Source: Naegleria gruberi (taxonomy: Eukaryota). From it: 64,000 nucleotides of DNA. The DNA is taken from assembly GCA_000004985.1 (NCBI GenBank), contig GG738855.1. One strand, given 5' to 3'. Below the pieces are notes generated by a model. It had not been told where the DNA came from. It did no database searches and was given only the letters and a program-made list of their open reading frames with translations. Numbering within the stretch: position 1 is the first letter of the stretch; each line of letters opens with the position of its first letter. Position numbers and translations under genes: made by a program. Positions 3,119-50,123 of this stretch are shown here, piece by piece.

Positions 3119-6100
3119 TTATTCTGTTTGATAATAGATTACAACATTTCTTGTACCACCAGCAGCAAAGAGAGGGAACTTGTCATGGAAGCAGCACGAT
3201 CCAACTTTTTCACCTTCTATATCTTGTAAAATACCTACACACTGGGCAGTTCTGCAATTGAAGATGATAATCAAACCCTTAGACGTTCCAGTGACAAGAT
3301 ATGGAGATATTTCTGCATTTCCAGAAACTCCAATCGCTGTCACATTATCATTTGAAGAATCAGAAAGTTTAGGAATATCCTTCTTATTGTATGTGTGTAA
3401 TCTTGTAGCTGCTTCATTCAAAAAGAACAAACCACAAAGTTGAGCATTTTCAGTAACATTCTCTTTGTGAATAGCAACCAAAAATATTCCTTGGTTTGCT
3501 CCAGTGGTTACAGCCTTAATTACAGAAGAGTAAATAACAGAGTATGGATTTAAAGCTATTTTTTGGAGTAATTTTCCACTACTCATTCTCCAAATGCCAA
3601 TATATGAATTAGTACTTCCAATTACAAAATCTTTCAATTCAGGGACAAACTGAAGGTTATTGATGGCTTCCTTTCCATTAAGGGTTTGGAATGTGACAAC
3701 CTTGACCCTACTCGTAAAATCACTTGTGAGCATGTATTTTAAAAGTTCTCCATTATTGGTTGCAACCATCAAAGTAGAGTCGTAAACTTCCATACAAGAT
3801 ATTGGTGATCTTACATCATCCAAGCTTAATAGGGGTTTTTTCTCTTGACCCAACTGACTTCTGATTGATGACCCATCGATATCAAAGAATCTGATATGAT
3901 AGGAGAGAGTTCCATCAGCTTGGGCAGGATTTTCATCATCCAGTATGGACATGGTCATGGTTATTGATGGTTCAAATGAGGAAGAGGCAATAATCAACAT
4001 TTCTCCATCAGGTGTAAACTTGGAAGAATAAAACTCCTCATTTTCTTCATTTTCTAAACCAAAAAGTTCTGTTTGAATCCATTCTGATCCTGTTAGCTCA
4101 ATTAAGGATACTTGAGTCTTTGTACAAATAGTTAATCTGGGATCACCTACTGGTGAAAATATCATGTTCAAAACTGGACCCTTAATCTTGATCCTACTAT
4201 AGGACTTGAGAGGATGTTGCTTGTCTATTTTTTCGATTGGATGTCTAGGTAGAGAATTTTGTGATAGCACAGGTTGAGATCGCATAGGAGAGGCAAAACT
4301 GGCACGTGGAGGACTGGAAAGTGGAGGTGTGCTTAGATTACTTTTGTCTGCATCATTTTCAGATGTAACAGGTTTTGTGGCACTGGATGAAGCCAGCACA
4401 GGTGAGGAAGGTATTTCTTCCTCATCTTCTGATTCAAAATTCAAACTAAAATTGACAGCGATTGTTGGCTCAAGCTCATATTTAGGTTTAACATCCAAAG
4501 TTTCACCCTTGTTCACTATTGGAGGAGATCCTAAATTAGCTTTTGTTAGAATAGGTGAAAAGTTGATTGGTGGTGAACTGAAATCTTTGATTTCAAAAGT
4601 TTGAGAAGGTGTTCTTGGTGACAATTCATCATCTGTTTCATCATCTTGAACTTGCATAAATGGATTCTTCTTTTTGCTTGGAGAAATATCGCCTGGATTC
4701 AAAACTATCTTTACAGCAGAGTATTGTGTCTCTTCCACCTCTTCAAGAATTACATCAGATTTAGGAGTGGTATATGACAATATTCTACTGGTATTATGTG
4801 GTGGTGTAGACATTGGTGGTGGATTATTATCTTCTTCCATTTCATCATCACTAACATTTGCTCCTTGAGATTCAAGTGGATCGTAATAGACTGTTGGAGG
4901 AATTACAATTTGTGGTGATTGTGCCTTTTCCTTTGGCTTAATTGGAGTTGGGGTTGGTGGAACTTCTTCATCATCAATCATTGTGTCAGCTTGTTTCACA
5001 TTTCCTTCTTTTGTAGTTTCTTCTTTAGCTGGTGGTGTAATATCCAAGTTCATGGATGGAAGGGTTTGAGGTGTTTCATCGTCTTCATCTAATTTATCGG
5101 TAGATGTCTTTTCCAGAGAAATATTTGGTTTCTGAACTGTTGGTGGAGGAGGTGATGGTGCTGTTTCAGTTTTGGTTTCTAATTTCTCTTCCAGATTCGG
5201 AAGCTCGGTTGGTGTACTCAATGATGGTGAATTCAAGTCAGCACTGTCATTGGTATTGAAATTAATGTCAACAGTAGGCATAATGAGAACAGGTTTGTTT
5301 GGTGAGGGTTTTGTGGTCGGGTTAGGACTACTTTGTTTGGCTTCTATGATTGTTATTGTGGTTGTTGCAGAACTGTTGGTGGGAACTGGTTGATGATTGG
5401 CTGGTTCCAAATCCTCCATAAATAATAAATCATCACCTGGAGGCAAAGAATCAGGTGTACTACTTGGAGAATCGAGTGTTGGTGATTTTGGAAGATCAGT
5501 ATTAATTCTGAGGGGAGATTTTGGCTTTTCGATTGGTTCACAAGTTTTTGTTGTGGATTCAATTGGTTTCACTTGTTCCACAATTGTTTCAACCTCAGCT
5601 TGTACAATTTGTTCACTTGTGATGGGTGGTTTCTTCTCAATGGTTTCAATGATGGCTGGTTCAGTAAAAGATGTGTCCTTTGGAGGAGAGTTGAAAGATG
5701 TTTCAACCTTTTCCTCTTGTGTACTTTTCTTGTTATCCAGTGGTTGAATTTCTTCTCCCTCATCCAGCATTGGATCCTTTTTGACTACTTCTTCTGTTGC
5801 TATAGTTATTTCTATTAATGGCTGTACTGTAGTTTCAGAAGGTTTTTCTATGATATCTACAATCATTTTGTCTTCATTTTGCTTAATGGTTTCCTCGATA
5901 GTACTACTAGTTGGAGGAGTAGGTGGTGGAAGAATATTTTGAGATGGTAATGAGGCTGTCAAGGATGAACTAGTACTACTGGACTTTTGGGTACTGCTCT
6001 CTTGGGTTGACCTCTTGGATTGAGATGGAAGGGATGGTACTGCAAATTCTTCGTTTCGTCTCTCGATTGGCATTTTTCGATTTTGCAAAGGAGAAATAAC

Positions 6101-26569: not shown

Positions 26570-29500
26570 ATGAGTAAACTCCAAGAAGTAGACGCAAGTA
26601 TTAACTTTGCTAGAGAAGAAGAAAAGACTTTGTCGTATTGGAAAGAAATCGACGCCTTCAATACCAGCTTGAAAAAGTCGGAAGGAAAGAAGCCATTCTC
26701 CTTCTATGATGGTCCACCATTCGCAACAGGGTATGTAAAAATCATCATAACTTGGAAAGCCTAACAATCTATTTAAATGTTGTTGTATATAATGACGATC
26801 TATTAATTATATTACATAGTGTAAGTATTAACTAGGTGATTCAATCAGTATTTACAATTATTTTCAGCTTCCTCACTATGGTCACATTTTAGCAGGTACT
26901 ATTAAAGACGTTGTTACCAGATATGCTCACCAAACTGGTCACTATGTTGAAAGAAGATTTGGTTGGGATTGTCACGGTCTTCCAATTGAATTTGAAATTG
27001 AAAAGATTTTGAAGAGAGACAAGATTTTCGAGGAAAAACTCTTGTCAGAAGAAGAGTTGAAAAACGAAGAATTGATCAAAAAGAAGATTTCAGAAATGAC
27101 TTTGAGTCGTGCTGATATCGAAGAATATGGTATTGCCAGATATAATGACAAATGTGAATCTATTGTCATGAAATACTCTTCCGAATGGGAACAAATCATT
27201 ACAAGATTGGGAAGATGGATTGACTTTAAGAATGACTACAAGACAATGAACTTCTCATTTATGGAAAGTGTTTGGTGGGTTTTCAAGCAATTATGGGATA
27301 AGAATTTGGTTTATAAAGGAGTTCGTGTCATGCCATACAGTACAGGTTGTACAACACCACTCTCCAACTTTGAAGTCACACAAGGATACAGAGATGTCCA
27401 AGATACTGCCATCACAGTTGCTTTCCCAATTAAGAGTGAAGATGAAAAATTCAAGGATACAAGCTTTTTGGTTTGGACAACTACTCCATGGACATTGCCA
27501 AGTAACTTGGCTCTCTGTGTTAATCCTGAATTCACATATGTTAGAGTTTATGATGAACAAAAGAAATGGTACTTTATCGTTTTGAAGGATTTGGCTTCTA
27601 AATATTTCAAGAAGGTCAAAACTGAAGGTGAATTTAAGGGAAGTGATTTGGTTGGTATGAAGTATGAACCTCTCTATAATTTCTATGCTGAAGAATTTGC
27701 TGATGCTTTTAGAGTTATTTCCGATGATTACGTCACAAATTCAAGTGGTACTGGTATTGTCCATCAAGCTCCAGGTTTTGGTGAAGACGATAACCGTGTT
27801 TGTGCCAAGTTTGGAATTATTGATAACAAGACTAGATTACCTCCATGTCCTTTGGATGATATTGGTCGTTATGTTTCACCAATTGAAACTTTCAAGGGAA
27901 TGTACATCAAGGATGCTGATCCATTGATTATTGAAGATTTGAGAAGCAGACTCAGACTTTTCAAGAAGGAAGGTATTACCCACAAGTATCCATTCTGTTG
28001 GAGATCTGATACTCCATTGATTTACAAGACTGTTCCATCTTGGTTCGTTAGAGTTACTGATTTAAGAGATAGACTTCTTGAAAACAATAAGCAAACTTAT
28101 TGGGTTCCTGAACACGTTCAAGAAGGTAGATTCCACAACTGGCTTGCTGATTGTAAGGATTGGACCATTTCTAGAAGTAGATATTGGGGTACTCCAATTC
28201 CTGTCTGGATGAGTGAGGATGGTGAAGAAATGGTTGCTGTTGGTTCTGTTGCTGAATTGGAACAATTGACTGGTATCACTGGAATTAACAATCTCCACAG
28301 ACAACACATTGACAAGCTTACTATTCCTAGCCAAAAGGTACCTGGTAAGGTTTTGAAGAGAGTCAGTGATGTCTTTGATTGTTGGTTTGAATCTGGTTCT
28401 ATGCCATATGCTCAAAACCACTATCCATTTGAAAACCCAGAAAAGTTCCAAGACTCTTTCCCAGCTGATTTCATTGCTGAAGGTTTGGATCAAACTAGAG
28501 GTTGGTTCTACACTTTGTTGGTTTTGGGTACTGCTTTGTTTGACAAGTGTCCATTCCAAAATGTTATTGTAAACGGTCTCGTCCTTGCTGAAGATGGTTC
28601 CAAGATGAGTAAGAGTAAGAAGAATTATCCAGATCCACAAATTGTTATTGACAAGCACGGTTCTGATGCCTTGAGATTATATTTGATCAACTCACCAGTT
28701 GTTAGAGCTGAACCACTCAAGTTCAAGGAAGATGGTGTTTTCGATGTCGTCAAGGAAATCTTGTTGCAATGGTACAATGCTTACAGATTCTTTGTTCAAT
28801 CTGTCAAACGTTATGTTGACGAAACTGGTGAAGATTTTAACAGTGATATTGCCAATGCTGCCAAGATTGATAATATCATGGACAAGTGGATCATTTCCTC
28901 TAGCAACAGTTTGTTGAAGAATATTAGTGCTGAAATGAAGGCCTATCGTTTGTATAATGTTACACCAAAGTTGGAAGGTTTCATTGACCATCTTACTCGT
29001 TGGTATGTCAAGATTAACAACAAGCGTTTGAAGGGTGAACAAAAGGATCAAACTAAGGAAGATAGATTGTCTGCCTTGTCTGCTATGTTCATTGCTTTGT
29101 ATAATGTTGTTAGAATTATGGCTCCATTCACTCCATTCTTGACTGAAAAGATGTATCAAAATCTTAAGAACTTGCTCACAAAGAGTGAAGATTCTGTCCA
29201 CTATGAAATGCTCCCAGAATGTGATGAATCCAAGATTGATTTGGAAATTGAAAGAACTGTTGAAGCTATGCAAGCTGTCATTAAGGTTGGTAGAACTTTG
29301 CGTGTCAGAAAGAACATTCCTTCCAGAACTCCAGTATCTTCCTACATTGTTTGTAACATTGATGAAGATTTCATTAGAAGAGTTAAGAGTATGGAATACT
29401 TTATCAAGAAGGAACTCAACATTCATGGATCTGTTATTGCTACAAGCAACATTCAAGAATATAGTGTTAAATTGGAAGCTACTCCAAATAACAAGGCTTT

Positions 29501-30029
29501 GGGTGTTCGTTTGGGTAAGAAGTTCAAGGATGTCTATAAGGCAATTACTGGTTTGAAACACGAAGAATTGGTTTCATTCTTGATGAAGAAGGAAATTGTT
29601 TTGTGCGGTGAAACTATCAACAATGAAGACTTGATTGTGGCTAACAAGTTTGTTGGTACTGAAAAGAATTACTTTGCTGATGAATGTGGTACTGGTACTT
29701 TGATTTTGAACACTGACTTGTCAGAAGAATTGAAGGAATTAGGTTTCGTCAGAGAAGCTGGTAGTAAAGTCCAACAAATGAGAAAGGAAGCTCGTCTCAA
29801 GTTTGAAGATAAGGTTGACGTTTTCTTGACTGGTAAGAGTTCTCAAACAGTAGTTGAAGTTTTGAAGAAGCACTCTGCCACTCTTGCTCAACATTTGAAG
29901 GGTATGGACGTCTTCTTTGAAGCTGTTCCTTCTGGAAAGGATTTGATCATTCAACAAGAAATGAATGTTGACAGATTAACTCAAGAAGAAAGCAATGTTG
30001 TTGTTTTCACGTTGATTAGAAAAGAATAA
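26570..30029 (+). CDS. IARS1: Isoleucyl-tRNA synthetase, cytosolic (eukaryote/archaeal) type
   Basis: Preferred model: join(26570..26730,26820..26820,26868..30029). Alternative: join(26570..26734,26868..30029). Motifs are [10 protein letters not shown] / [14 protein letters not shown] (HIGH), [43 protein letters not shown] and KMSKSKKN (KMSKS). Confidence 0.95.
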
Positions 30030-49248: not shown

Positions 49249-50123
49249 TTAATGAGAGAGTAAATTCAAACGATCTTTCCATGCTGTATCTGCCGAGTGG
49301 AAGGTAATAATTCTCTTTTCGTCTTGCTCATCTGCCACTTCAGAGTTCATGTCTGTATCGACTGGTTCGAAAATAATACAGAGAATGTGACATTTGGTTG
49401 TGTCTGACATGGCATCTTTGATGATAGTGTGATGTGGTTGCTTCATCACATCTTCTTCCAATAATCTATTTCCCCATTCAATGAGCGAAATTCCACTTGA
49501 AAAAACAGATGGTAAATCCAATCTATCAAATCGTTCCAATCTATAGAGGTCAATATGATGAATAGGACTATTAAATTATTATATTTGTTAAATTAAAATT
49601 CATTGTAATAATACGAAACTTACACTTTCTTGCTCGTCATTTTGGATTCGTAAATATTATCTAGCAAAAATGTTGGTGATGGAACATTGAGATTCATATC
49701 CTTTTCCAATACTCTGATAACGTGTCTTGCAAAAACAGATTTTCCACTTCCCATATCACCAATTAATAAGACAACATCTGTAGATTCCAACATGGATGAA
49801 AATCTTTCGGCCAAATTTCTAGTTTCTTCAACTGAATTGACAACAAAAGTTGCTTCAAAATAGGTGGGAGTGACCTGGGATGGTATTTCTCTAGCCGAAT
49901 ATTTATAATCATCCATTTTCTGTTGCTTTTTCAACTCTGGCCCATTTAAACAAGAGTGAGTACTGAATGTTCTTTCTCCGATGAATTTTGTAGATTGATT
50001 CCAATTAGTGGTAGTCCAGTTGGCCGCACTTCCAAGTATAAACTTTCCATTGTTTTTGGTGATGGATTGAATTTGATGGATGAGATTGATACTTCTTCTT
50101 CTGCTGCTGTTGCTCGATAACAT
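49249..50123 (-). CDS. tsaE: TsaE (YjeE)-family P-loop ATPase of the bacterial t6A tRNA-modification system, with a roughly 90-aa N-terminal extension
   Basis: Model: complement(join(49249..49567,49624..50123)) with a 56-nt intron (GTAAGT..AATAG). All TsaE signatures are in order: Walker A LLIGDMGSGKSVFARHVI, SPTFLLDNIY, (intron) PIHHIDLYRLER, and ISLIEWGNRL. Confidence 0.8.

Follow-up and report, generated by a model that had tools for sequence, protein, structure and literature searches.

We propose that the gene for isoleucyl-tRNA synthetase (IleRS) of Naegleria gruberi contains an exon of a single nucleotide. The gene lies in a 64,000-nucleotide (nt) stretch of contig GG738855.1 (assembly GCA_000004985.1), referred to here as the window, and the proposed exon is T26820. 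Very probably, the IleRS genes of Naegleria carry two U2-type GT-AG introns around this retained base, an mRNA junction that we infer from the genomic sequence. In N. gruberi, introns 26731-26819 and 26821-26867 would both be removed and the T kept, so that GG+T forms a Gly codon. The added base would bring LPHYGH into frame and give the universal PPFATG-L-PHYGH motif. The locus is organized as follows.

26570 to 26730, plus strand: IleRS exon 1, from the ATG at 26570 to the GG of the Gly codon (MSKLQ...FYDGPPFAT in translation).
26731 to 26819, plus strand: intron 1, 89 nt, GTATGT...CATAG, phase 2, part of the sole solution that preserves the motif spacing.
26735 to 26740, plus strand: rival donor GTAAAA, used by the public model, with a Tyr inserted (PPFATG-Y-LPHYGH), as given by the sequence of that model (P0001) and by the enumeration described below.
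26803 to 26807, plus strand: candidate branch-site motif TTAAT of intron 1, assigned by resemblance.
26820 to 26820, plus strand: proposed 1-nt exon, T, third base of the Gly codon GGT, a four-fold degenerate site.
26821 to 26867, plus strand: intron 2, 47 nt, GTAAGT (26821-26826)...TTTTCAG, phase 0.
26840 to 26846, plus strand: TTCAATC, alternative candidate branch region of intron 2.
26851 to 26858, plus strand: TTTACAAT, candidate branch region of intron 2, as read from the sequence.
26868 to 30029, plus strand: IleRS main exon, from CTT CCT CAC TAT GGT CAC (LPHYGH) to the TAA at 30027-30029, frame uninterrupted.

Exon 1 ends in TTC GCA ACA GG at 26730 and is followed at once by GTATGT (26731-26736). 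A sequence-only reading of this DNA had already placed these boundaries, the CATAG ending at 26819, T26820, the GTAAGT at 26821 and the start of LPHYGH at 26868; all of these coordinates are exact, and the intron lengths of 89 and 47 nt are correct. It had also held that 26730 cannot be joined directly to 26868. This is indeed so, since the product would read GGC TTC CTC ACT ATG GTC ACA TTT TAG, a stop after eight codons. Intron retention was rejected because of an in-frame stop inside intron 1, where the open reading frame (ORF) 26570-26764 ends. Exon 1, the T and the main exon together encode a protein of 1107 amino acids (aa), 98% identical to the N. gruberi IleRS XP_002679956. The protein contains PPFATGLPHYGH in the HIGH region as well as KMSKS, as expected of a class Ia eukaryote-type cytoplasmic IleRS, and it matches the solved IleRS 9w01 with E=1.5e-83. 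The precomputed Pfam domains of the 98%-identical N. gruberi IleRS are PF00133, PF08264 and PF19302 (tRNA-synt_1, Anticodon_1 and DUF5915). No credible overlapping gene was found on the opposite strand of the region, and an Rfam scan of the N. gruberi junction region gave just one chance-level match, to a long noncoding RNA (lncRNA).

For N. gruberi, N. fowleri and N. lovaniensis, we enumerated all single GT-AG introns, and all intron pairs enclosing a micro-exon of at most 40 nt, that leave the path from PFATG to PHYGH free of stops. Only three solutions exist in N. gruberi: the 1-nt exon, which gives PFATG-L-PHYGH; a 133-nt intron from 26735, which gives PFATG-YL-PHYGH; and a 118-nt intron that ends at 26848 and lengthens the motif by six residues. 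The sequence-only reading had considered the GTAAAA donor at 26735 the only canonical single-intron alternative, and here it needs correction, as 26731-26848 is a second in-frame option, inserting IYNYFQ. In all three species, the PFATG-x-PHYGH spacing is restored only by a 1-nt exon, and with a single intron the motif gains 1 to 6 or more residues. N. lovaniensis offers an additional, nonhomologous 1-nt option, an A at 3216 with the weaker donor GTTGAT.

The spacing itself is invariant. Exactly one residue separates PPFATG from PHYGH in 235 of 235 non-Naegleria IleRS. The sample comprised 243 IleRS sequences from two database searches, and the eight that deviate are models or fragments from Naegleria. 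One-residue spacing was also found in 19 metagenomic loci recovered by a scan for the spliced-junction pattern; these are intron-less IleRS genes of other organisms, and none of the 19 is from Naegleria. Aligned with the solved cytoplasmic IleRS of human (9w01) and yeast (7d5c), the 1-nt-exon protein shows no gap through the motif. Together with the enumeration in three species, the 235/235 spacing supports the earlier proposal that a 1-nt exon, or AG/N/GT resplicing, is needed to keep PPFATG-LPHYGH intact.

The same arrangement is found in the sister species, where the sequence-only reading had suggested looking. The genomic loci compared were two from N. fowleri (L001 and L024), one from N. 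lovaniensis (L004) and one from the outgroup Willaertia magna (L003). Both Naegleria relatives show the same one-base offset and the same solution to it (TTTAG/C/GTATGT). The N. fowleri gene reads GCA ACA GG/GTATGT, a 208-nt intron, TTTAG/C/GTATGT, a 246-nt intron, and CTATAG/CAT CCT CAC. N. lovaniensis has the same layout with introns of 184 and 188 nt, and the second N. fowleri contig is identical in layout, its intron 1 differing in length by 1 nt. The orthologous retained base is as follows.

L001 3394 (N. fowleri): C.
L024 1893 (N. fowleri): C.
L004 3367 (N. lovaniensis): C.

The core AG/N/GTAWGT is therefore present in all three species, as CATAG/T/GTAAGT in N. gruberi and TTTAG/C/GTATGT in the other two. 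The retained base varies between T and C, a synonymous change, as GGT and GGC both encode Gly. Such variation at a four-fold degenerate position is what would be expected of a real coding base under neutral variation. The intron 1 donor, GG/GTATGTA, is identical in the three species. Beyond the splice signals, the N. gruberi introns (89 and 47 nt) cannot be aligned with those of N. fowleri (208 and 246 nt) or N. lovaniensis (184 and 188 nt). When the N. gruberi gap was compared with theirs by short-word blastn, collinear matches were confined to the GTATGTA donor; the remaining matches are short, scattered and mostly on the opposite strand. The whole two-intron unit measures 137 nt in N. gruberi, against 373-455 nt in N. 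fowleri and N. lovaniensis. When the gaps of the latter two are aligned, no more than 50% of the columns are identical; ATTTAGCGTATGT nevertheless ranks second in length among the perfectly conserved runs.

Some further features of these loci were recorded. The N. fowleri and N. lovaniensis introns (L001 3186-3640, L004 3183-3555) are 2-5 times longer than those of N. gruberi. Away from the splice sites, they share the conserved blocks TTTCTTGTCATTCTC, TCGTGATATCC and TTGGAATTGAA, and they also contain ATGATGA and CTGA motifs. Rfam returned only a sub-threshold C/D-box snoRNA match in the N. fowleri region (snoZ119, 22 bits, E=0.17, L001 3208-3284). On the 36 kb N. fowleri contig VFQX01000045.1 (L024), the IleRS locus occurs a second time, collinear with L001, and its annotation divides it into two genes, P0124 and P0007. 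A frameshift in the tail of P0124 with respect to P0002 points to a haplotig or an assembly error, and not to a true paralogue. An uncultured Naegleria-like IleRS with 79% protein identity occurs on an ENA metagenome contig (k141_1301270, L002 1-30). Its exon start, AATAG/CAT CCT CAC, is as in Naegleria, and the contig stops 25 nt into the intron, short of the micro-exon.

Both IleRS introns look like ordinary Naegleria introns. The ORF-supported introns of the window are 40-60 nt long, three of them exactly 47 nt, which bears out the earlier description of 47 nt as the modal size. They begin with GTAAGT or GTATGT, apart from one GTACGT and one GTTGGC, with G at +5 in every case. Just upstream of their donors, the last exon base is poorly constrained, and a genuine donor at 49623 has the same AGT/GTAAGT context as the micro-exon. 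TTAAT, CTAAT and TTAAC motifs are found 10-25 nt upstream of the AG in the window's confident short introns. The first AG downstream of the candidate TTAAT of intron 1 is 26818-26819.

The motif of the internal signal, AGNGTAWGT, occurs four times on both strands of the 64 kb (128 kb scanned), against 2.59 expected, or about 2e-5 per position. The number expected by chance is about 0.003 in the 137-nt N. gruberi gap and about 0.01 in the N. fowleri gap. When both strands of the 64 kb were searched for exons of at most 6 nt between strong donors and ORFs, the IleRS locus was the only one found. One further call of this size, composed of two ordinary introns (1534 and 1844), was an artefact.

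The public gene models all go wrong at this codon if the proposed structure is correct. The N. gruberi model XP_002679956 reads GYLPHYGH. In the RefSeq models of N. fowleri and N. lovaniensis, PPFATG runs straight into RFGWDCHG, and the HIGH motif is deleted. Another N. fowleri model, CAG4715497, inserts the five residues VCKYI by using the same first intron and then a 16-nt exon; it thus does use the intron 1 acceptor TTTAG/C. Naegleria gene calls derived from metagenomes and from Logan start downstream of the HIGH motif. That separate annotations of three genomes break at one codon is expected of a structure that gene finders cannot represent.

Two other stretches of these models deserve mention. 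In the window, P0001 also removes an in-frame 63-nt "intron" at 27044-27106 on the plus strand (GTCAGA...TTTGAG). The equivalent stretch is kept as an open, similar peptide in N. fowleri, N. lovaniensis and the metagenomic Naegleria contig, and because of this the 63-nt intron is probably false. It is part of an insertion of about 30 aa (residues 103-133) specific to Naegleria, which neither Willaertia nor the solved IleRS share. The N. lovaniensis model P0121 (L004) lacks EDDYRVCLKHGIFDGKE, reading GFG/VLPPCP, and the N. fowleri protein keeps it. The gap in P0121 looks like another doubtful predicted intron.

The main competitor is the deposited RefSeq/JGI model XP_002679956, which pairs the weak donor GTAAAA at 26735 with the AG at 26867 in a single 133-nt intron and leaves an extra Tyr. 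This intron is canonical GT-AG and in frame, and since GGG TAT GTA is present in all three species, each has an equivalent +4 donor. These donors (GTAAAA in N. gruberi, GTAGTT in N. fowleri, GTACTA in N. lovaniensis) are, however, conserved only in GTA, and all three lack the +5 G of accepted local introns. The conserved TAT-GTA is fully explained by the GTATGTA donor one codon upstream. An extra residue before HIGH is found in none of the 235 other IleRS, the Tyr reading leaves the conserved internal AG/N/GTAWGT unexplained, and the N. fowleri annotators did not pick the equivalent model. We therefore regard the inserted Tyr as unlikely. The 118-nt intron 26731-26848 (GTATGT...AATCAG) has the merit of the strong donor and is likewise canonical and in frame. 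Its six-residue insertion, IYNYFQ, is not seen before HIGH elsewhere in the IleRS set, and N. fowleri and N. lovaniensis have no equivalent solution, which leaves this option with next to no probability.

A single intron with its boundary shifted by one base, either GT...CA (26731-26866) or equivalently TA...AG (26732-26867), would give GGG CTT, that is, Gly-Leu. The resulting spacing is right in all three species, where the shifted-boundary base is always G. However, the 5' end is unlike the U12 consensus RTATCCTT, and the conserved AG/N/GTAWGT block is again left unexplained. To our knowledge, GT-NA and TA-AG introns do not form recognised spliceosomal classes, and this boundary is very unlikely. 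A U12-type or AT-AC intron was rejected, as the donors GTATGTAAAA and GTAAGTATTA do not fit RTATCCTT. Finally, the offset might be an artefact or the mark of a dead gene. One base missing near 26729-26735, the indel that the sequence-only reading named as a possible refutation, would cause the same frame problem in a single assembly. The same offset is present in N. gruberi, N. lovaniensis and two contigs of N. fowleri, all assembled independently, which rules out an indel error. A pseudogene copy is at odds with an intact ORF of more than 1000 codons and 78% protein identity between species, and no other cytoplasmic IleRS was found among the N. gruberi matches. Hardly any likelihood attaches to this explanation.

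The 1-nt exon and its rivals predict different junctions, and the two orders of removal predict different intermediates.

N. gruberi, 1-nt exon (predicted): ACAGGTCTTCC; also CCATTCGCAACAGGTCTTCCTCACTATGG.
N. gruberi, GYL model (predicted): ACAGGGTATCTTCC.
N. gruberi, non-canonical boundary (predicted): ACAGGGCTTCC.
N. gruberi, T skipped and frameshifted (predicted): ACAGGCTTCC.
N. fowleri, 1-nt exon (predicted): ACAGGCCATCC; also GCAACAGGCCATCCTCAC.
N. fowleri, Tyr insertion (predicted): GGGTATCATCC.
N. fowleri, base skipped (predicted): ACAGGCATCC.
N. gruberi half-spliced form, intron 1 removed first (predicted): ACAGGTGTAAGTATT.
N. gruberi half-spliced form, intron 2 removed first (predicted): TTACATAGTCTTCCTC.

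A plausible mechanism for the 1-nt exon follows from the compactness of the introns. The splice signals lie almost wholly inside the short introns, and each intron may thus be recognised alone, by intron definition. The AG of intron 1 occupies positions -3 and -2 of the intron 2 5' splice site, inside the U1-binding window. Owing to this overlap, the two introns would not be fully engaged together and would be removed sequentially, in a ratchet-like manner. The likely order is intron 1 first, during transcription, which would create the normal donor ACAGGT/GTAAGT. The reverse order would also leave a normal acceptor, CATAG/TCTT. Since skipping of the T leads to a stop after eight codons, its inclusion would be obligatory for a functional enzyme.

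It is conceivable, though rather unlikely, that the 1-nt exon serves as a conserved checkpoint in the splicing of an essential gene. IleRS output would then be set, via unproductive splicing and nonsense-mediated decay, by the balance between ordered two-step splicing and skipping. In N. fowleri and N. lovaniensis, conserved intron blocks beside the micro-exon, TTTCTTGTCATTCTC among them, might act as control elements. If this were true, the locus would be a natural minimal substrate, indicating that an intron-defined spliceosome needs no exon body between introns, far from plants and fungi.

Several points weigh against a 1-nt exon in Naegleria IleRS. Branch sites are weakly defined in Naegleria, so that each intron can be judged competent only by resemblance. 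The comparison covers no more than two truly independent lineages, N. fowleri and N. lovaniensis being close relatives. The deposited N. gruberi model relies on another canonical GT-AG intron that is also in frame. When the N-terminal 157 aa of the three corrected proteins served as a search profile, no transcript-derived Naegleria IleRS was returned, only one more broken N. fowleri model. The metagenome scan with the genomic exon 1/donor pattern gave 0 matches, and neither it nor the scan with the spliced-junction pattern found a Naegleria cDNA.

The outgroup offers a view of the origin of the arrangement. In Willaertia magna, the same Gly codon is split by a single 44-nt intron in phase 1: ACT G/gtaagt...tatag/GT CTT CCT (L003 3191-3234). 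It lies 1 nt upstream of the Naegleria intron 1, and the Willaertia model is correct (GLPHYGH). Because Willaertia has one ordinary intron here, the two-intron layout is specific to Naegleria among the available taxa. Possibly, the second intron was gained 1 nt from an older intron that had slid; it is also possible that a boundary frameshift was rescued by a cryptic AG/N/GT, by analogy with the proposal for Fusarium discussed below. Willaertia has a second intron of 40 nt at L003 3347-3386 (GTTAGT...TTATTAG), inside HG/LP of WDxHGLP, which is absent in Naegleria.

If the proposed structure is correct, it would be the third 1-nt exon, with no earlier one from a protist (Heterolobosea) or from an essential housekeeping gene. 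It would have been kept since before the split of N. gruberi and N. fowleri, and exons of this extreme size would be phylogenetically widespread and evolutionarily stable. Every public Naegleria IleRS protein would be wrong at the catalytic HIGH motif. Such errors matter for the aminoacyl-tRNA synthetases of the brain-eating amoeba as drug targets and for structural work. Gene finders and spliced aligners have no means of representing 1-nt exons, and the locus offers a clean case on which to test them; the phase-shifted single intron of Willaertia is an entry point to how such exons arise.

Related arrangements are known in which two splicing units meet. The zero-nucleotide recursive sites of Drosophila, where an AG abuts GTAAGT and stepwise removal regenerates the donor, subdivide introns tens of kilobases long. 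The likeness to Naegleria IleRS is a 3' splice site adjoining a consensus 5' splice site. However, the Drosophila ratchet point leaves nothing in the mRNA, whereas the Naegleria unit would retain one base and is 137 or 373-455 nt long. The locus is not a zero-nt ratchet point, as one base lies between AG and GT in three species and the zero-nt join is out of frame. In the stwintrons of filamentous fungi, the outer intron has its GT, AG or branch motif split by an inner one, and nothing is left between them. Here, too, two introns are in direct contact and would be removed in turn, but the Naegleria introns are intact at their ends and a base would remain. A stwintron was rejected: if intron 1 split the G/T of the donor ([D1,2] type), the result would be ACAG/CTT, which is out of frame. 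Moreover, both introns have a complete GT...AG, and the effect on the second donor is confined to its positions -3 to -1, on the exon side.

The closest parallels are two 1-nt exons in other kingdoms. The single-nucleotide exon of Arabidopsis thaliana APC11 was demonstrated by cDNA sequencing and mutagenesis, and its authors proposed intron definition with recursive, sequential removal of the two introns (Guo & Liu 2015, PMC4674806). As in Naegleria IleRS, a single base lies between AG and GT inside a supposed single intron, it is essential for the frame, the annotation is wrong, and the identity of the base appears irrelevant to splicing. The APC11 exon is proven, whereas the Naegleria junction is deduced, in another kingdom and another gene. 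The Naegleria case also differs in that intron 2 is only 47 nt and in that the exon is conserved across the genus with a synonymous T/C exchange.

The 1-nt exon of Fusarium CYP621A was supported by a comparison of 20 orthologues and by SRA reads; it was counted as the second 1-nt spliceosomal exon on record and was suggested to have arisen from a boundary frameshift rescued by a cryptic AG/N/GT (Nelson & Syed 2026, PMC12940212). It shares with Naegleria IleRS exon phases that cannot be joined inside an invariant motif, resolved by a conserved AG/N/GT in a Gly codon. In CYP621A, this signal sits in a double-length intron, and, apart from a single transcript record, the automated models get the motif wrong. 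The CYP621A base is invariably G (AGGGT) and occupies the middle position of its codon; in Naegleria, it would be the wobble position and it varies. CYP621A is a rarely expressed accessory gene with SRA support, whereas IleRS is an essential housekeeping gene whose junction is predicted. Our literature searches on Naegleria with micro-exons, recursive splicing and splice sites, which covered open-access papers, found no earlier report. Naegleria IleRS is thus a new case of a very rare known kind, and not a new kind.

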